A program made the translations under genes and the position numbers. 43,591 nt of DNA from an uncultured Candidatus Peribacteria bacterium. Lineage in GTDB: Bacteria > Patescibacteriota > Gracilibacteria > Peribacterales > Peribacteraceae. Below the pieces are notes generated by a model. The model saw only the letters and a list, made by a program, of their open reading frames with translations. It ran no database searches and was not told the origin of the DNA. The stretch's first letter is position 1; the number at the start of each line of letters is the position of its first letter. Below are positions 16,103 through 39,504 of the stretch, one piece after another. The stretch covers positions 4,841 through 48,431 of the forward strand of contig CAYUWH010000002.1 in assembly GCA_964448615.1 (NCBI GenBank), read 5' to 3'.

Positions 16103-18550
16103 TTACTTTTGTCCTTGTCCCGCAGATCCCTTCTGCATTCCTGGGAACAATGCCGGATTATTGGCCAACGGCGTGGTGGCGATTCTGCGCGCGAGCCAGC
16201 GGACGATGATCATGCCCGTAAACATCGAGATCAACACGCCCAGACCGAGCGTGACGGCAAAGCCGCGAACGATCGATGTGCCGATAAGGAAGAGGAGTGC
16301 GCAGGTAATGAGCGTGGAAATGTTACTGTCGCGGATGCTGGACCAAGCACGGTTGAAACCGACTTCGACCGCGGTCTTCAGCAATTTTCCTTTCTGCAAT
16401 TCTTCTTTCATACGCTCGAAGACGAGGACGTTCGTATCAATCGCGAGACCGATCGAGAGGATCATACCGGCCAATCCTGCGAGTGTGAGGACGATATACT
16501 GATCGGAGACCAAGAAGAGGGGGAGCTTGAGCATTGCGATGAAGATCAAGCAGTACACCGTGAGGCCCGCCATGGCGAGCACGCCGAGGAAACGGTACAC
16601 GAAAATCATAAACAGCATGAGCACGATGAGTCCGTAGAGAGCCGCTTGCACCGAGGTTGTCAAAGCCTGTGCGCCGAGCGTGGCTTCCACCGTGCGTTGG
16701 CCACTCAGGTAGATGGGGGCTGGGATCGCTCCCGTATTCAAATCTTGCGTCAACTTCTGGGCTTCATCGATATTATTGCTACCCGTGATGACTGCGACTC
16801 CCCCCGTGATTTCCGCCTGGACGGTGGGGGCGGAAACCAATTCTCCTCCGACGAAGATGGCGATGCGCTTGCCGATATTCTTCTTCGTCAGTTCTTGGAA
16901 GAGCAGGCCGCCTTCGGTATTGAAGGTGATCTGCACGATCGGACGGTTGGTCGTCGGATCCAAGACTGTCGTGGCAGTGCGGAAATGCTGGCCGTTCAGC
17001 TCCGTATCCTTCCAGCCTGTCGGAGCCAAGGAGAAGAAGAGTGTGCGCAGCGTGATCGCTTCTTGCAGGTCTTTTACTTCTCCCCGTTGCAGCTTTGCGA
17101 TGATGTCTGCCGCGCGTTGGGCGGCATCCTGACCTTTGATGGTGAGCGCGTCGAAGCTGACGACATCGGAAGTCATGTGAGCGACTTTGTCGACTTTGAC
17201 GATGAAATACCCGAAGGGGGATTCAAGCGGATCGCTGATCTGTCCGTCTTTTGCGGAAAAGGCGTAGGCCTCATAACTGGGGACGAGACCGGAGCCTTTG
17301 GTTACTGCGCCGATGCGGCCGCCACTGAGTTTTGACGGGCCATCGGATTGTGCGCGAGCGAGTTCCTCGAAGTTTGTGCCAGCGGCAAGCTGACTCTTCA
17401 AATCCTGTGCGCGCTTCAGTGCCTCCTCCTTGGTACGGGTGACGCCCGGCTCCGCTTGATTTGCTCCTTTGTAAGAAACGAGAATATGGCTGACTTCCGC
17501 TTCTTGTTGCCCCGGATTCAGTAAGCGCAGGAAGAGCACTTTCGCGGTGCCGTCTCCCATGTCGATGCTCTTCAATTCTCCCGCACGCATTTGGCGCAAT
17601 GTTGCCACTGCGATTGCAGGCAGGTTATCGCCGAGCGGTTCTTCCTTGTGCAGTTCGTAGCTCAAAGTTTGATCGGTTTTGGCAAGTGTCTCGAATGCGA
17701 CTGATGCCTCTTGAATCACGCGGCCCGTTTGGGTGCGCGGCTTCAAGACCTGCGTGAGCATGATGCCTTTGATCGTTTCTTCCACCGTTTGGCCCTGATC
17801 ATTCGTGACGGTCGTCGGGACGGTCACGGTGCGTTCTACGACGTTGGTTCCGGCGGGCAGGTTCCACACATCCTCCATGCCCTGGGGCAGTTGGTCTCTA
17901 AAGAATGCCTGCGAGTCGCTGTACGAAACGCCGAGTTGTGCCAAATCCTGGCCAAGCACCTGCAAGCTCGCTCCGCTCTGCACCATACGCTGTTTTGCGG
18001 CAGCCACTTTGTCTTTCACGGATTGTTCATACTGAGCGGTCGCCTCGGTGAATTCCTCTTTGAATTCTAACTGAATGGTTTTTCCCACGGTTTCGATGCA
18101 TTTCTGCACGTCGACCACACCCGGACATTCCACAAGCAGGTGCTTCTCGCCGCCGATATACGAAGGCGTGATCGTCGCCTCGCTCACGCCGAGCGAGTTG
18201 ATGCGGCGCTCAAGGACGGTACGAATCGCTTCGACCAACTTTCCGCTTTGTTCCACGATGGCGGCGCGATCGGCGCGCAACTTATCGATCTCCTCTCCGG
18301 TTGTTCCTTGTGCTTCCATCTCCGCGATGCGCGCATCGATGGCCGTGATTTGCTGCTGAATTTCCTGTTCGGAAATGCGGAAATCCAATTGCGTGCCACC
18401 GGCAAGATCGAGCCCGAAGTGATAATCCGGCTGTTGCAGGAAGGCGGGCGCCCATTGCTTATATTCTGAAGGCAGAGCGATGATTGCGATGAACAATCCT
18501 GCGATTGCGGTGGCAGCGGGCCAGAGATACGGAGTGCGAGAAGAAGCCAT
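16103..18550 (-). CDS. secD: Protein translocase subunit SecD with inserted parvulin-type PPIase domain
   Basis: GLDLAGG, ERRINSLGVSE, LTLAGLAGMILSIGLAIDTNVLVFER.KEE, I.DSN.ST; rotamase motifs SHILVSY, FEELARAQSD..S...GG, SPFGYFIV. Confidence 0.95.
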   Translation of the reverse strand: MASSRTPYLWPAATAIAGLFIAIIALPSEYKQWAPAFLQQPDYHFGLDLAGGTQLDFRISEQEIQQQITAIDARIAEMEAQGTTGEEIDKLRADRAAIVEQSGKLVEAIRTVLERRINSLGVSEATITPSYIGGEKHLLVECPGVVDVQKCIETVGKTIQLEFKEEFTEATAQYEQSVKDKVAAAKQRMVQSGASLQVLGQDLAQLGVSYSDSQAFFRDQLPQGMEDVWNLPAGTNVVERTVTVPTTVTNDQGQTVEETIKGIMLTQVLKPRTQTGRVIQEASVAFETLAKTDQTLSYELHKEEPLGDNLPAIAVATLRQMRAGELKSIDMGDGTAKVLFLRLLNPGQQEAEVSHILVSYKGANQAEPGVTRTKEEALKRAQDLKSQLAAGTNFEELARAQSDGPSKLSGGRIGAVTKGSGLVPSYEAYAFSAKDGQISDPLESPFGYFIVKVDKVAHMTSDVVSFDALTIKGQDAAQRAADIIAKLQRGEVKDLQEAITLRTLFFSLAPTGWKDTELNGQHFRTATTVLDPTTNRPIVQITFNTEGGLLFQELTKKNIGKRIAIFVGGELVSAPTVQAEITGGVAVITGSNNIDEAQKLTQDLNTGAIPAPIYLSGQRTVEATLGAQALTTSVQAALYGLIVLMLFMIFVYRFLGVLAMAGLTVYCLIFIAMLKLPLFLVSDQYIVLTLAGLAGMILSIGLAIDTNVLVFERMKEELQKGKLLKTAVEVGFNRAWSSIRDSNISTLITCALLFLIGTSIVRGFAVTLGLGVLISMFTGMIIVRWLARRIATTPLANNPALFPGMQKGSAGQGQK

Positions 18551-31021: not shown

Positions 31022-32821
31022 TTACAGCCCTTCCTTCTTTATTTTCAGCACCATTCGTACCACGAAGGAAAGCAGGACGATCATGATGAAGGTCATGCCG
31101 GTCCAGATGATCCAGGGATGCTGTTCGGAGAAGCGATCATCGGTGGTATCACAGATATCACCCAGTTTGTCGGCATCCAAGTCACCCTGGTTATAGTTTT
31201 GCGCATAACGGCAGTTATCGTTGGCATTCAGAATGCCGTCGCCGTCGTCATCTTCGCAGGCATCACCAAGGCCGTTGTTATTGTGATCAACTTGATCGGG
31301 GTTAAAGACAGTCGGGCAGTTATCGAGCGGAGGGAGTAAGGCATCGCCATCGAGATCCGTACACGCATCGCCCTGTCCGTTCTTGTCGCCATCCTCTTGA
31401 TCACGATTCTGAATCGTTGGGCAGTTGTCGCACGTATCACCGAGACCGTCGCGGTCGCGGTCGACCTGATCCGCATTCGGAGTAGCTGGACAATTATCGC
31501 GCGCGGTAGGCGTGCCGTCTCCATCCGGATCAAGCACAGCTCCCTCGCAGGCATCACCAAGATTGTTGCCGTTGCGGTCTTCCTGTCCCGGGTTTTTGGT
31601 ATCCGGACATGAGTCGCAACTGTCACCGATGTTGTCCTGATCGCGGTCCTCCTGTTTCGCATTCGCCGTGCTGCGGCAGTTATCGACCGTATCGGGAAGA
31701 CCGTCGCTATCGCGATCGAGTTGGCACGCGTCGCCCACCCCGTCACCATCGCTGTCTTTCTGATCCGCATTGCGGATGCCGATGCAGATATCATTTCCGT
31801 TCATCACGCCATCTCCGTCAGCATCGTCGCAGGGATTTCCGATTCCGTTGATATCGTCATCCTTCTGATCCGGATTGAAGACGTTCTGACAGTTGTCATC
31901 GCTATCGCCAACGCCATCATGATCCTGATCGTGTTGCGGCAGATTCGGGACGGCGGGCGCGTTGTCGCAGGCATCACCAAGACCATCACGATCCTTATCG
32001 CTTTGATTCGCGTTCGCGACCGAGGGGCAGTTATCGCGTGCGGCGACTATTCCATCTTTATCCGCGTCTTCTTCCAGTACGCGTTCTCCGCCCACTACCG
32101 CATACGCCGTTGTATTCGTGGCGGAGAGGGAAGCGGGAGCAGGGGGAAGCGCGGGAGGATTCGAGTCATCATAGACCAATCGGTAGGCCGTGCCCGGAGA
32201 CGCTTCAAACAATATGCGCGCAGGCTGCATGCCGCCGACGGTGACTTCGCGCAGAGTCGGGACCGTTTCATACGTGAATTGCACGCGGATGCCATCGGTC
32301 ATGACGGACGAAAAATCGGCCGACTGACTTCCCTTCACTTCCCGCAGCTTCACATAGCCGTTGGTGCTGCGCGCGGAAATGATCAGCGAAGAGAATGTTT
32401 GATCTGCAACGACATCGATCGCATCAACGCGCACAGGCACAAGAAAGCCGATCGTGATGGTGCAGGAAGAAGGATTGCGGATCGGATCCGGGCGTAATGA
32501 TGTCGCCGTGCTGCCATCATGCAGGGCTTGGGTTTGTCCGTTTCCTTCCACTGAACATACTGAAACATCTCCGATGATGCCTCGTAATTCTCCCGCTCTT
32601 TCCGGTGCGCTCTTCTGTGCGATCACCGTGCTTCCTTGCATGACACGAAGCGAAGCCAGTGGCGATACCTGCAGTACCGATTCCGGAACGGCGATGAAGA
32701 CCGGTTGTGACGATCCGATGCCGCGCGTATCAATCGGGCGTTCATACGCAGGAGCCGCGAGCGCGGCTACCGTCCAGAGCGAACCGGTGAGAATGGCGAG
32801 AGAAGAAAGGCGGAGGCGCAT
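31022..32821 (-). CDS. Surface protein with about 10 thrombospondin type-3 repeats and C-terminal TM anchor
   Basis: Signal peptide, repeated DNCP..N..Q.D.D.DG.GDACD, C-terminal TM plus basic tail; DUF3999-like LF.A.PG..Y.L.Y. Confidence 0.9.
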
Positions 32822-32823
32822 GA

Positions 32824-34851
32824 TTAAGGGTGGGAGCCGAACAAAGATTTCAGCGTTTCTTTTTTGTGCTGATACAGGAAGGATGCTGCGACAAGCACAG
32901 CTCCGAGGATAGTAAAGCCGATGACGCGGTAGCCTGTTCCAAGGCTGAAGAAATCAATGAGGGTAAGCTTTGCCGTGGCGATGATGAGGATGATGAGGCC
33001 GAAGACGCGCAACGGTTTCCAATTCCGCATCGCACCGAATACGAGCACTGCGGCGGCGTACAATGCCCACAGGATCGAGATGCCGACTTGCAGCACCTGT
33101 CTCGGTCTCTCGAAATTGGCGAAGAGGCGTCCGTCATCCACGGCGCGCGTGAATTCATTGGTGAGGTAGACGAGCGTCACAATCTGCACGGCGACGCCGA
33201 GAATCGAAAACATCTTCCTTTCTTCTTCCGTCAGCGTGGTCCAGCGCTTTCCCGCCTGCAATAAAATGAAGTAGCTGCCGCCGATCAGGGCCGCCGCCTC
33301 GATGAAGCGCTGGAATCCCGTCAGCGTCGATTGGTGCCCCATGATATTCATCCCGAAGGAACCCGCAAGCACGGCAAGTCCCACAAAGGCGAAGAGCAAG
33401 GTTTGCTGCTCTTTCCGGTCGCTACGCAGCAGGCCAAGCGTTGCAATAACCGCGAACATCACGGTCCAAACCAGGAAGAGATAGAAACCCTTGGTGAAAT
33501 ACAGAAGCGGAATGCTGGCGCCCATACCCAAGTTCGCCGATGATGTATCTGCGGGGATAAACAGATACCAGAAATACGCTGCGAGCATCACAAGCCACGC
33601 GAAACGCTGGATGCGAGGATCATGCAATTTCAGGGCGATCCACAAAAGGAACACGCCTTCCATGCTCCAGGCCAGTGGCACCCACACGTTCCCGAGCTGT
33701 AACGGAATCGCCAATGATGTGAAGAGGACGACCAGCGAAAGACTGCCGAGCACCAGCGGCGTATCCGTTTTATTTCTCTTGTACACTTCGCCGCTGAAGA
33801 TCAGGAAGATCACCGCGAGGCCAAGCGAAACCATGGCATCGTAGCTCTCGCGCAAGCCGGGAAATTTGCCAAGCCACCAGAGCACCAGGACAAAGTGCAG
33901 CAGCGCATTGCCGATCAGGATCATCAAATCGGGACCTTCGGACTTCTGCTGCTTCAGCAAATTGTAATAGAGAGGAACGAGCAGGTAGATCACGAAGAAT
34001 GCCGCGATGAAGACGAGGGCCGTCGACATCCCAAAAGCGGGATCGTCGAGTGCGAGAATTTCGTACACGGCGGTTCCCATGAGGCCGAGCGCATTGAGCA
34101 TCCTCCATTGTCGTGCCCGTCCGAGCGCGAAAATGCCGCAATCGAGAATGAGGATATACAGCAGAAGCGAGAACGTGCTCCCTTCATCGCCCGTCAGTAT
34201 TGGGGTTAAGAAGCCGCCGATGATGCCGAAGGCCGCGAGTGGCAGTGCACCGTAATATCCCGCAAGCAGACAGGTGACAGCAGTCGTGAGAATATAGATC
34301 GCAAAGGCGACCGGAGAGGGGAAGAGGTGATACGTATGCAGGGCGATCCATGTCACGATGTATGAGGCAAGCGCGCCGCCGCCCGTAAACGTGAGAGACC
34401 AGATGCCATAACGCTTTCGCAGTCTGTCTCCCGCAATGATTGCGCATCCCGCGAGGATATAGCCGATGAGCGTTCTGCCGGTAGGCCCGATCAAGCCGTT
34501 ATCGAATGACCATTTCAGGAAGAAAATCAGCGCGGCGACAAGCACTGCCGTGCCGATCCATTGCAGCCAATGTGCGCCGACTTTTTCCTCAAGCGATTGG
34601 AAGTCGGTTTTTGCAGGAGCAGATTTTTGTACTGCTTGCGGCTGTTTGGCTTCAGCGCGTGCGGGTTTCTCCTCTTCTTCTGGTTGGGGTCTTGCGGCGC
34701 GCTTTTGTGGAGTGGGTGCCGACTGCGCGTTGCGTTCCAGTTTTTTGACGCGGTCCATCAAGCGGAAGAGCAAGATCGGCGTGACGATAAAATAAAAAAG
34801 ACCAAGCAATAGGGAGATTGGTCCCAAGTCACCCAGGATGGAAAACCACAT
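32824..34851 (-). CDS. DUF2339-family membrane protein
   Basis: LE.K.G..W..WIG, F..WSFDNG.IGP.GR, G..GGFLTP.L, K....D...L...YR...F..LG; start set at MWFSIL. Confidence 0.88.
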
Positions 34852-35090
34852 ACGGAAAGAGAAGAAGAGGTAGTAAGCGCAGTATAGCAGGCTTGTCACA
34901 CATCGGGAGAGCGGACACATCTGTCGATTTATTTCCAGGATTTGGATTGCGGGCCGCGCTTCGGCATCGGCGAGTACGATACATTCGCGCCCGCCAGCTT
35001 GATGAAGTTTCCCTATCTTGATTTTCTTTTTGCATGCCGCCGACTCGAATCCGGATATCCCTGCTTGGAATTTATTCTATACTCTCCAGT

Positions 35091-37175: not shown

Positions 37176-37212
37176 AAAAAACCGCCCCTCGATTTCACTC
37201 GGGGCGGTTTTC
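37176..37212 (-). terminator. Intrinsic terminator downstream of hcp (bidirectional form)
   Basis: aaaaaaccgcccc ... ggggcggtttt. Confidence 0.8.
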
Positions 37213-37224
37213 ATTTTTACCGTA

Positions 37225-37815
37225 TTAGATCTTCTTATTTGCTTTCACATCGTACCCAGCCTTTACGGGTGCAGCTGCTGATCCATCGGCCCTGGTCGGT
37301 GTGTACTCAAATTCGATTTTGCCGAAGTTCAGCGAGAAGCTGTCCGTCGGAACTGCTCCCGAGCTGCCTCCGCTCTGATACGAAGAAATCAGGACATCTT
37401 CGAGTTTGACTTTGTAGAACTCCACCTGCTTATCGCCCGATTTGCGGACCGTAAGCGTGGCGCTCTTGATATGCTCTCCCGTCGCAGCCTTGAGCATCAG
37501 CATCGGGGAAGATTTGTCGGCGTTTTTCATAAAGTGAAAGTCGTGCACAGACACTTTACCTGCACCACCACCACCGGCCCTAGGCGATCCTCCCATGACG
37601 ATGCCGGGATTCGTCGCACCCCAGCTGAAGGACGAGATTTCGATTTCTCCCTTGTGTTTGCTATCCGAGGACTCTCCTTCCACTCCATCGAGCTTCAGGA
37701 AGTAGTCAACCGAAGCAGCACCTGCTGTCGGCACGCTCTGCTCAGCAGGAACATTTGCCAAAACCAATCCTGCGATCAGCGTGCTGCCGAGCAAGATGCC
37801 TAACAATTTTTTCAT
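37225..37815 (-). CDS. hcp: Hcp-family (type VI secretion tube) protein with N-terminal signal peptide
   Basis: YFLKLDGVEGES.D.KHKGEIEI.SFSWG, GGGAGK, DKSSP.L, GEHIKSA.L.VRK, L.DVLISSYQ, SLNF.KI..EY, GYD.K.NK; preceded by MKKLLGILLGSTLIAGLVLA. Confidence 0.93.
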   Translation of the reverse strand: MKKLLGILLGSTLIAGLVLANVPAEQSVPTAGAASVDYFLKLDGVEGESSDSKHKGEIEISSFSWGATNPGIVMGGSPRAGGGGAGKVSVHDFHFMKNADKSSPMLMLKAATGEHIKSATLTVRKSGDKQVEFYKVKLEDVLISSYQSGGSSGAVPTDSFSLNFGKIEFEYTPTRADGSAAAPVKAGYDVKANKKI

Positions 37816-37875
37816 GGTATGAAAAAAGTAAGAAATAAAGAATGGCAAGGTACATCAGAATTTGTCCCTATACAA

Positions 37876-38133
37876 CTATCTGATCTTCTTTTTGCGCTTG
37901 AGCCAATCCATCAATTTCTTGCCGTACTCTCTCAGGCGTTTGGGAATCAGGAACCCGAGACCAAGCAATTCCAGGCCCACGATGATGAGCCAGGCGCCGG
38001 GCGTGAGGGGGGTCACCAGCGCAAAGAGACCGATCAGCAGGCAGAGTGCGCCGAGGATGTTCTTGAGCACGCGAAGCACCTGGAATTTTTTCGGTAAAGT
38101 GGCTGGGATCGGCACCCGGAGCCCGCTTTCCAC
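37876..38133 (-). CDS. Small membrane protein (PGPGW-like); start uncertain
   Basis: ILG..CLLIG...L.TP.TPG.WLI..GL.LLG plus basic tail. Confidence 0.7.
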   Translation of the reverse strand: MESGLRVPIPATLPKKFQVLRVLKNILGALCLLIGLFALVTPLTPGAWLIIVGLELLGLGFLIPKRLREYGKKLMDWLKRKKKIR

Positions 38134-38193: not shown

Positions 38194-38781
38194 TTACAGT
38201 ATCTTGAACGATTCCATCATGCGTTCGACCACCGGGTACAGGATTTGCGAATCAAAAGAATTAAGATGATCTTGCCCGCACGCGGTTCCCTGCTTGCAAA
38301 GACGTAAGGACAGCATCAGGTTATAGCATCGCTTGTCTTTCGATGTGCCATAGGCGATGTAGCGTTGTTCTTGGCGCGACCCAACCGTCGTACTGGTCCC
38401 TTTATAGAATTTTTTATCGCCCAGGGTGATAGTTTTTGCATTTACGAAACGCGCACACGGAGCATAGCTCGTCTCGATAAAGAGCAGGCCGCTCAAAAAA
38501 GTCGTGCCTTTCGCAAAATTTTCAGGCGTGATGATCGCCGTCCCGGCACGTTGGCGATAGGTCAGCGGAGAACGTGCGTGCTCCTCGACGGTCCATCCTT
38601 CCGGATACTTGATGGAATATCCTTCTGCGGTATTGGTATAGGTCTGCGTGAGAGCATTGCGATCCGGTGCAGGAGAAGAAGCCACGGAAGAGGCGGCGGT
38701 TGTTTCTTTTGGCGGTATCACTTCCGCGTTGCAGGCAGTTAGCGCAAAGGGGAGCAACCAAAGGATGAATCGTCGCTTCAT
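38194..38781 (-). CDS. Lipoprotein with PsbP-like domain
   Basis: LTAC lipobox, Y.N...GYSIKYP.GW, M.ESFK terminus; extended -10 TGCTATACT 6 nt before ATG. Confidence 0.8.
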   Translation of the reverse strand: MKRRFILWLLPFALTACNAEVIPPKETTAASSVASSPAPDRNALTQTYTNTAEGYSIKYPEGWTVEEHARSPLTYRQRAGTAIITPENFAKGTTFLSGLLFIETSYAPCARFVNAKTITLGDKKFYKGTSTTVGSRQEQRYIAYGTSKDKRCYNLMLSLRLCKQGTACGQDHLNSFDSQILYPVVERMMESFKIL

Positions 38782-38922
38782 ACGATGAGTATAGCAGTTA
38801 TCACTCGTTCTCATAAAAACAAGGACTTCTGACACATCCCCGCATGAGAAGCGTCAAACATTTCGGATGCAGTGAACGCATCTTTATCGTTCATTCTCGC
38901 TTATTTCTTCCCCATCTTCTTT

Positions 38923-39504
38923 ATGAAATCATCATTCCTTGCTTCAAGAGCTGCACGCATAGGCGTCTCGCTTGCCACGGGGGCGCTTGCCCTCACGACT
39001 TCGGGAGCGGCACTTGCCGGAAATTACTCCGGCACGCAGTTCGGCGGTTATAACAATAATGATTGCGGTACGCAGCAATACAGCGACTGCAACAATAACA
39101 ACAACTTCGGCGGTTATAACAATGATGACTGCGGCAACAACAATTCTCACTGGTTGAGTGGCTTTAACTTCGGCGGCTCCGATTCGTGTGGCAATGGCAG
39201 CAATGTCGGTGGGTTTGATTTCGATGACTATTGCCAGAACGGTAATGGCAATCATGTCGGCGGTTTCGGCGGCTTCGACTTCAATCCGTTCAATGACAAT
39301 AATGGCGGCTCCCAGAGCGCAAATGTCGACGCAAATGCCAACACCACAGTAAACAGCGAAATCAATGCGGCATCTGTGAATGACGTGAATGTGTCGCAGG
39401 ACGGAGGATTCCTCCAGGATGCAGATGTTGATGCTAACGCTGAGACCAATGTGAACAGCGAAATCAATGCAGCCTCGGAGAACAATGTGTCCGTGAGCCA
39501 GTAA
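38923..39504 (+). CDS. Secreted Asn/Gly/Asp-rich repeat protein
   Basis: Signal peptide ending ALA, FGGYNN.DCG repeats, two V.ANA.T.VNSEINAAS.N.V.VSQ repeats, followed by a terminator. Confidence 0.85.
   Translation: MKSSFLASRAARIGVSLATGALALTTSGAALAGNYSGTQFGGYNNNDCGTQQYSDCNNNNNFGGYNNDDCGNNNSHWLSGFNFGGSDSCGNGSNVGGFDFDDYCQNGNGNHVGGFGGFDFNPFNDNNGGSQSANVDANANTTVNSEINAASVNDVNVSQDGGFLQDADVDANAETNVNSEINAASENNVSVSQ

Follow-up and report, generated by a model that had tools for sequence, protein, structure and literature searches.

A predicted exported Hcp-family protein in a Peribacteria genome with no detected type VI secretion genes

The Hcp gene and its N-terminal extension

The window analyzed here, a whole stretch of 43,591 nucleotides from an uncultured Candidatus Peribacteria bacterium of the Candidate Phyla Radiation (CPR; assembly GCA_964448615.1, contig CAYUWH010000002.1), carries a gene for a protein that is a member of the Hcp/TssD family by both homology and fold. 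Hcp is a textbook marker for type VI secretion systems (T6SSs), and its presence in a genome or a supernatant is routinely read as a sign that a T6SS is present and active. The protein described here, P0001, is predicted to depart from T6SS Hcps in two features, namely co-occurrence with the machine and a cytoplasmic location without a signal. Its minus-strand open reading frame (ORF) encodes 196 amino acids from an ATG start (Table 1); in the list of open reading frames, the frame reaches an upstream TTG at 37848, which would add 11 more residues.

The family assignment comes from sequence and structure searches. The Pfam family T6SS_HCP (PF05638) matches residues 39-171 (E 8.5e-39; 133.2 bits versus a cut-off of 23.5) over the whole model, positions 1-129 of 129, and the NCBIfam model for the TssD subfamily, TIGR03344, scored 58.3 bits with a cut-off of 58.9. 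The best natural sequence match in the Protein Data Bank (PDB) is Pseudomonas aeruginosa Hcp1 (1y12, E 4e-37), with query residues 33-193 aligned to chain residues 3-162. Because this alignment starts at residue 33, P0001 is a complete Hcp preceded by about 33 residues, just as the initial annotation had described it. An AlphaFold2 (AF2) model built on a 60-sequence alignment has a mean predicted local distance difference test score (pLDDT) of 85.4. The score is ~44-54 in the first 20 residues, ~70 in residues 21-30, and mostly 87-98 over residues 31-196, except in a glycine-rich loop (71-90), where it is low. The low confidence over the hydrophobic h-region places that region outside the fold. 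The top Foldseek matches are all Hcp entries or Hcp1 fusion constructs (4tv4, 1y12, and 8yun; TMt 0.89-0.97), and the model and Foldseek agree on the Hcp fold, a beta-barrel that has a single helix and a loop that is extended. Fold-critical residues are conserved in the homologue alignment, and a Protein Atlas search returned only Hcp clusters of 180-187 amino acids. A complex prediction with four copies of residues 34-196 (score 0.21, mark 0.42) gives no verdict either way on rings.

The residues ahead of the Hcp domain have the features of a Sec signal peptide processed by signal peptidase I (SPase I): a positive n-region, a hydrophobic h-region (10-mer mean of 2.4 on the Kyte-Doolittle scale), and small residues at -3 and -1. 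The MKK start, the hydrophobic core, and the two candidate cleavage sites that had been named at the outset are all present. The small-x-small sites are V-L-A/N after residue 20 and A-G-A/A after residue 33 (a slash marks the cut). V-L-A/N directly follows the core, at the usual distance between an h-region and its cut. From residue 34 on, the protein reads ASVDYFLK, as a canonical Hcp does after removal of its Met.

A start codon placed at the Hcp domain itself would speak against a signal peptide. At the domain boundary, ATG, GTG, and TTG are all absent, with V36 encoded by GTT. The nearest alternative start is a GTG at V28, which would leave an 8-residue extension.

Three other kinds of signal were considered and rejected. 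P0001 has no cysteine and hence no lipobox, which rules out a lipoprotein (SPase II) signal; it has no LPXTG-like C-terminus, which rules out sortase anchoring; and, as judged by eye, the homologues share neither the conserved G/(F or A) motif nor the +5 Glu of a type IV pilin-like (class III) signal.

Table 1. Coordinates of the Hcp gene, its parts, and other features of the window
Feature	Position	Strand	Remarks
Coding sequence of the Hcp with the predicted signal peptide	37225..37815	-	196 aa; stop TAA at 37225-37227
n-region, M1-K2-K3, net charge +2	37807..37815	-	From the translation; positive charge common among homologues
h-region, L4-A20, 17 uncharged hydrophobic residues, LLGILLGSTLIAGLVLA	37756..37806	-	Ends in V18-L19-A20 / N21
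Polar spacer and c-region, N21-A33, NVPAEQSVPTAGA	37717..37755	-	Ends P-T-A-G-A / A
Predicted mature Hcp1-type domain, residues 34-196	37228..37716	-	Pfam, PDB search, AF2, Foldseek
Intrinsic terminator	37176..37212	-	Stem of 7 G-C pairs plus further A-U pairs; U6 follows
Proposed promoter, TTGTAT-N17-TACCTT	37847..37875	-	Weak; 3/6 + 3/6 sigma-70 consensus positions
SecD with PrsA/SurA-like isomerase	16103-18550	-	815 aa; isomerase ~350-470, SecD 514-792
Protein with six thrombospondin type-3 (calcium-binding) repeats	31022-32821	-	599 aa; envelope protein
DUF2339 membrane protein	32824-34920	-	698 aa; envelope protein; adjoins the 599-aa protein in the same gene run
PsbP-like protein; an internal Met start gives MKRRFILWLLPFALTAC, with a lipobox	38194-38835	-	No Pfam match above cut-off
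Secreted protein, Asn/Gly/Asp-rich, with '...NSEINAAS.N.V.VSQ' repeats	38872-39504	+	210 aa; no Pfam match above cut-off

Relatives of the protein and contents of the host genome

The extension recurs among homologues. A word-indexed protein search returned 5118 relatives, and we analyzed the best 120 together with the query (121 sequences). An extension of at least 20 amino acids before the D-Y-F-L-K strand is present in 63 of these 121 closest sequences, query included, and 59 of the 63 contain a hydrophobic 10-mer of at least 1.9. The four exceptions have weak cores (P0027 and P0029) or are apparently N-terminally truncated (P0034 and P0072). Named carriers of the extension include a Patescibacteria metagenome-assembled genome (MAG; P0005), Nitrososphaera viennensis (P0025), Nitrososphaera evergladensis (P0039), a Nitrososphaera MAG (P0032), and a SAR202 MAG (P0029). 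Searching the 50%-identity cluster representatives exhaustively yielded 12136 matches, 513 of them below 1e-30. The best 150 include 85 single-domain proteins (<330 aa); 61 of these 85 have the extension, which is hydrophobic in 56, and 24 have none.

Pooling both sets gave 110 extension-bearing single-domain proteins. The -3/-1 rule holds right before the canonical Hcp N-terminus in 88 of the 110, with an exact A-x-A in 57, compared with 24.5% (437/1787) at other linker positions taken as a control. The n-region is net positive in 98 of the 110. In about 17, no more than 7 residues separate the end of the hydrophobic core from the boundary, giving a textbook-like signal that ends A-x-A/A-x-V-D-Y-F (P0173, P0242, and P0254). 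Within the 11-member clade of P0001 itself, the boundary reads P-x-A-x-A/A almost throughout, and the 95%-identical homologue P0002 has an identical signal peptide, its changes being confined to the glycine loop. Judged from this conservation across homologues, the extension is not an annotation accident. The class of signal-bearing Hcps appears to be large, although its share of all Hcps is not given by these rankings.

By eye, the N-termini of three homologues (P0193, P0263, and P0266) resemble twin-arginine (Tat) signals, with S-R-R-x-x-L-K followed by hydrophobic residues and then by A-x-A. The Tat pathway exports folded proteins, and these homologues may cross the membrane already folded. 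On the same visual reading, they would represent a second export route converging on the Hcp domain.

Extension-less Hcps of Acidobacteria and other phyla share 50-66% identity with the domain of P0001. We built a maximum-likelihood tree from the 121 domains after trimming off the extensions. On this tree, the extension label takes 5 changes to explain, compared with 40.5 when labels are shuffled, and P0001 belongs to a clade of 11 rows, all with the extension, that has 98% SH-aLRT support. The backbone of the tree has low resolution, and it neither shows nor excludes a single origin of the extension. TssC was found in 4 of 5 genomes with extension-less close relatives, the exception being a Thermoleophilia MAG, and in 0 of 5 other genomes with extension-bearing Hcps (three CPR genomes, a Nitrososphaera MAG, and a gammaproteobacterial MAG). 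The Thermoleophilia MAG (G405), which is actinobacterial, encodes an extension-less Hcp of canonical appearance that begins MAVDYFLK (L010), with no TssC match in its 4.1-Mb genome; by sequence, it appears to be an orphan Hcp of a different kind.

The two groups also differ inside the domain. A cysteine in the A110 column, which sits in the single helix (L-x-C-A-T-G-x-H), is present in all 58 of the extension-less relatives and in 24 of the 63 extension-bearing ones, which mostly have T or A instead. Domains free of cysteine make up 38 of the 63 extension-bearing sequences versus none of the 58 extension-less ones. K53, Q130, and Q174, invariant in the canonical group, and K55 and E132, nearly so, are relaxed in extension-bearing forms, and position 159 has S where the canonical group has Q. 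The loss of the cysteine and the relaxed positions would fit a change of compartment and lost T6SS-specific contacts.

The host genome (1.38 Mb in 61 contigs, 92% complete, 1.5% contaminated, 52.8% GC) has one Hcp match, which is this gene. Its assignment to the CPR, proposed from the window, is supported by the GatB that the window encodes. At 73-77% identity, all but one of the named GatB relatives are Peregrinibacteria, Peribacteria, or Peribacteraceae, and the remaining one is labeled only "Patescibacteria group bacterium."

Profile searches of this genome gave no match to TssC/VipB, TssB/VipA, Phage_GPD/VgrG, TssK, TssF, gp25/TssE, or the phage tail sheath. The T6SS profiles included PF05591, PF05943, PF05954, PF04965, PF05947, and PF05936, and an Escherichia coli positive control matched in every contractile-family search. 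Pfam and NCBIfam likewise found no T6SS gene among 20 neighboring ORFs in the window, as the initial annotation had stated, and none of 401 sampled genomes of the phylum (those listed are 0.7-2.0 Mb) gave a TssC match. The proposal that this Hcp is independent of a T6SS is well supported beyond the window: no complete T6SS locus turned up elsewhere in the genome, nor any sheath, baseplate, or spike gene.

The genome encodes what a Sec route would need at the membrane. Signal peptidase I is present on contig C11 (TIGR02227, 151.9 bits versus a cut-off of 47), and SecD lies in the window itself (Table 1), in an 815-residue protein that appears to join a post-translocation foldase to a translocon accessory subunit. 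Together with the signal pattern kept across homologues and the small-x-small site at the boundary, these genes give good support to the Sec-type export that had been proposed. Omp85/BamA and LpxC had no match in the whole genome, which is consistent with a predicted envelope that has a single membrane. The available text of a Peribacteria genome description (PMC4736985) reports peptidoglycan, S-layer genes, sortase A, and type IV pili and makes no mention of Hcp.

Expression, neighborhood, and comparison with known systems

The transcript of the Hcp gene has a well-defined end. The terminator hairpin lies 13 nucleotides past the stop (-23.8 kcal/mol, z -5.14, 0/200 shuffles as good) and is followed by UUUUUU, in agreement with the terminator first proposed; since it is also listed on the plus strand, it may be bidirectional. 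The promoter proposed alongside it did not hold up. It matches the consensus at only 3/6 + 3/6 positions, no better than chance, and is not listed by a promoter consensus scan that found 1 site with 1.5 expected. Its -35 element abuts the TAG stop (37876-37878) of the upstream same-strand gene, which encodes an 85-residue PGPGW membrane protein and ends 60 nucleotides from the Hcp gene, close enough that co-transcription is possible.

No Shine-Dalgarno (SD) motif precedes the Hcp ATG. Among 767 ORFs of at least 250 amino acids, SD-like 4-mers occur upstream of the first ATG in 12.6%, versus 9.6% in shuffled sequences. The genome hardly uses SD motifs, so their absence here is normal. The ACC-ATG context of the Hcp gene fits a genome-wide preference for C at -1 and -2, and the rarity of SD motifs with this preference suggests that the genome initiates translation independently of SD motifs.

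The neighboring genes encode the DUF2339 protein, the thrombospondin type-3 repeat protein, a 546-residue membrane protein, a Zincin_1 protein, and the PGPGW protein, as well as the PsbP-like lipoprotein, the Asn-rich secreted protein, and an RlmI-like methyltransferase. The PsbP-like and Asn-rich genes form a divergent pair just upstream of the Hcp operon region. PHROG gave no matches among the neighbors. The GC content of the Hcp gene equals that of the genome, and its GC content at third codon positions (GC3; 60%) is within the range of its neighbors, so the gene is not a very recent arrival; recent transfer as judged by composition was ruled out.

Signal-bearing Hcp genes are accessory and patchily distributed, not housekeeping. 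In the sample from the phylum, 6 of 401 genomes gave an Hcp match, one of them false (read as ribosomal protein L3), leaving 5 of 401; the four other matches, at 31-36% identity, each have a hydrophobic segment at the start. Of the 121 genomes in the Nitrososphaera MAG's order, 6 have a match, with one to five copies each. A scan of genome contigs gave 31 loci, only 2 with a signal-like extension (L015 and L030). A metagenome-contig scan with an alignment of the extension-bearing forms gave 80 loci: 74 extension-less, 3 cut at a contig end, 1 without the motif, and 2 on short contigs with the signal-bearing form (L062 and L094).

The Nitrososphaera order has a variety of signal-Hcp loci (L128 on G506:C10, L130, L133, L135, L132, L125, and L127). 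The five-copy genome includes a 673-residue signal-Hcp fused to Ig-like repeats with an Asn-rich tail. Other variants have C-terminal W-x-x-D-G repeats or C-terminal cysteines, and in one genome (G501) a copy is broken into three pieces that lie side by side (L129, L131, and L134).

Among characterized systems, P0001 most resembles Hcp1/TssD of the P. aeruginosa H1-T6SS (PA0085, 1y12). The two share the same fold over 160 residues (38-42% identity by Foldseek, TMt 0.89-0.93), including the glycine-rich extended loop and the C-terminal strand. Unlike Hcp1, P0001 has a 33-residue predicted export signal, and its genome and phylum gave no sheath, spike, or baseplate matches. The extension-less Hcps of Acidobacteriota, Pseudomonadota, and others (P0023, P0043, and P0050; L002, L005, L016, and L020) are interleaved on the tree with the putative exported forms. 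In contrast to P0001, they start M-A-x-V-D-Y-F, and P0001 lacks the cysteine that is invariant among them.

Phage and extracellular contractile injection system (eCIS) tail-tube proteins (T4 gp19 class) are distant homologues of Hcp and have in common with it the ring-forming beta-barrel tube fold. One PHROG family of unassigned function, the Hcp-like phrog_27303, matches P0001 at 1.5e-34. However, P0001 has no phage or eCIS gene nearby, and the searches for phage sheath and gp25 in its genome were negative. Specialized ("evolved") Hcps (Hcp-ET) carry C-terminal toxin domains. They share with P0001 the use of Hcp as a module, but they are T6SS substrates without signal peptides, and P0001 has no toxin domain. 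PMC3482391 also mentions "N-terminal HCP1 domains" fused to toxins.

The best-scoring relatives of P0001 in the 50%-cluster library are six-domain single-chain proteins from Planctomycetes-like organisms (P0122-P0136; L022), at 30-49% identity per domain. Exactly six Hcp domains are present in 39 of the 65 multi-domain representatives among the best 150 of 12136, and Pfam found six in all 6 multi-domain proteins examined. These chains are ~1000-1600 residues long (P0122-P0155 and others), and many start with the Planctomycete extracellular motif "LE.R.LL" (PF07595), which scores 26.0 in P0136 (cut-off 25.5) and below the cut-off in P0123 and P0125. One lies in a Pirellulaceae MAG as a 1082-residue open frame (approximately L022:6870-10115). 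A six-domain chain is possibly a single-chain hexameric ring, and the PF07595 motif makes it probable that these proteins are also extracytoplasmic. They differ from P0001 in fusing six domains into one chain of 1000-1500 residues, where P0001 would need six separate subunits. We found no paper on six-domain Hcp chains in a literature search.

Predicted export, its alternatives, and their meaning

We propose, with a probability of roughly 0.7, that the product of this gene is an Hcp that is exported and does not depend on a T6SS; the ring protein probably functions outside the cell. The positively charged N-terminal end would stay inside while the Hcp domain crosses the single membrane through the Sec translocon, after which SPase I would cut the exported protein. 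We somewhat favor a cut at the conserved P-x-A-x-A/A boundary site, which would leave A-S-V-D-Y-F-L-K, the N-terminus of a canonical M-A-x-V-D-Y-F-L-K Hcp after Met removal. A cut after VLA20 is possible, though the weaker candidate, and it is improbable that the protein goes uncut and stays tethered to the membrane.

The mature 163-residue domain would then form hexameric rings, either in the zone of the cell wall or in the medium. Hexamer formation is inferred by homology to solved hexamers and from the six-domain single-chain relatives. The ring would serve as a binding or scaffolding module, such as a holder of cargo in its lumen, a surface scaffold, or a short tube, without sheath, spike, or baseplate. 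As a first guess, the ring would carry or hold other exported proteins or serve in surface contacts. No result favors one use, whether among these or among the stacked rings for host contact, the channel, and the decoy for T6SS effectors that had been proposed at the outset.

Several points weigh against this proposal. The signal-peptide call is based on rules (charge, hydrophobicity, and the -3/-1 rule). The usual gap between the end of an h-region and the SPase I cleavage site is about 3-7 residues. In P0001, the boundary site lies 13 residues past the hydrophobic core, and the median over the 110 extension-bearing proteins is 17.5. This gap exceeds the usual c-region length, which makes cleavage at the boundary uncertain and an uncleaved anchor possible. 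Because the query included the signal peptide, the rankings favor extension-bearing matches, and the fractions given above do not measure frequencies across the whole family. Phylogenetically, the extension-less group may be the narrower one, which would inflate its invariance, so the residue differences serve as supporting evidence only. With a genome 92% complete in 61 contigs, the absence of a T6SS is not formally secure. No neighbor is shared between the window and six other extension-bearing loci, the sole synteny being that of the close relatives L040/L041. Finally, the sequencing runs that hold the stretch are DNA only, from one freshwater study, two of them possibly its source, with no RNA run.

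The best of the alternatives, which we consider unlikely overall, is an uncleaved signal-anchor, in which six helices, by way of a linker of 13-25 residues, would tether the hexameric ring to the outside of the membrane. The hydrophobic core has a median of 20 residues in the family, by a crude measure, and about 22 in the Nitrososphaera forms, and the spacer between core and domain is long. The N-termini of Hcp1 all lie on one face of the ring, as seen from engineered N-terminal fusions (PDB 4kss, 7o42, and 6ap1) that are still hexameric. However, the core of P0001 is only 17 residues long and is followed by a good VLA/N site. The 3-fold enrichment of small-x-small at the boundary over the linker is hard to explain without cleavage, and relatives with short signals have the same site directly after the core.

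A second alternative accepts export and gives the ring a defensive role: as a decoy, it would capture Hcp-loaded T6SS effectors or mimic a phage tail tube at the surface, shielding the cell against neighbors or phages. Hcp lumens are said, after work by Silverman et al. in 2013, to bind small effectors. The patchy, accessory distribution (5 genomes among the 401 of the phylum and 6 among the 121 of the Nitrososphaera order, with multiple and broken copies in the latter) is typical of conflict genes. However, PADLOC defense models gave 0 matches for the protein and its 5 neighbors, and the loci compared have no conserved neighbor that resembles an immunity protein or a toxin. The host, which appears to have a single membrane and a wall, would also be a poor T6SS target. 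We regard a decoy as a distinctly improbable role.

It is more improbable still that P0001 is a cytoplasmic Hcp with a mis-called start, serving a T6SS or some other contractile system that is encoded in the 8% of the genome left unassembled or that a host or partner cell provides. The incompleteness of the assembly leaves room for this, the domain is close to that of extension-less Hcps, and there is the GTG at V28. However, the boundary has no start codon, a start at that GTG would still leave its 8 residues, and the upstream frame is open, with a signal-like pattern kept in homologues from several phyla. The empty searches for seven contractile families in the genome and for TssC across the phylum point the same way. 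Least credible of all is the idea that the gene is the decaying, now functionless remnant of an Hcp gene gained by horizontal transfer. Its rarity in the phylum, its much closer relatives in other phyla, and an archaeal relative in three pieces speak for this, but its ORF is intact, its terminator strong, its composition that of the genome and its neighbors, its fold-critical residues conserved, and its relative P0002 changed only in the glycine loop.

If P0001 is an exported Hcp, what does this mean for the family? In the full-text literature, we found no description of a signal-peptide-bearing Hcp, subscription papers and supplements (e.g., N. viennensis proteome tables) lying outside the search. 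With many Hcps carrying Sec or Tat signals in machine-free organisms (CPR bacteria and archaea), the label "type VI secretion system tube protein" is misleading there. Such Hcps, occurring without a T6SS, would mean that the ring fold has a second, extracytoplasmic use.

It is tempting to go further and see exported Hcps as a widespread extracellular ring or tube system without a contractile machine, extending from the CPR to ammonia-oxidizing archaea and the six-domain rings of Planctomycetes. We hold this broader idea to be doubtful. Under it, rings exported by Sec or Tat and trimmed to the native N-terminus would stack or dock on the surface, where they would carry cargo or link cells, for example an episymbiotic CPR cell and its host. 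If true, it would give the phage-tail-tube fold a second, sheath-free life. Because a cultured carrier exists in N. viennensis (P0025), the localization, processing, oligomeric state, and partners of such a protein are directly testable. What is new here is the single-membrane CPR host, in which export would mean the outside of the cell, together with the close archaeal relatives. This would give CPR biology a candidate component, extracellular or on the surface, for a lineage that is believed to live attached to other cells.

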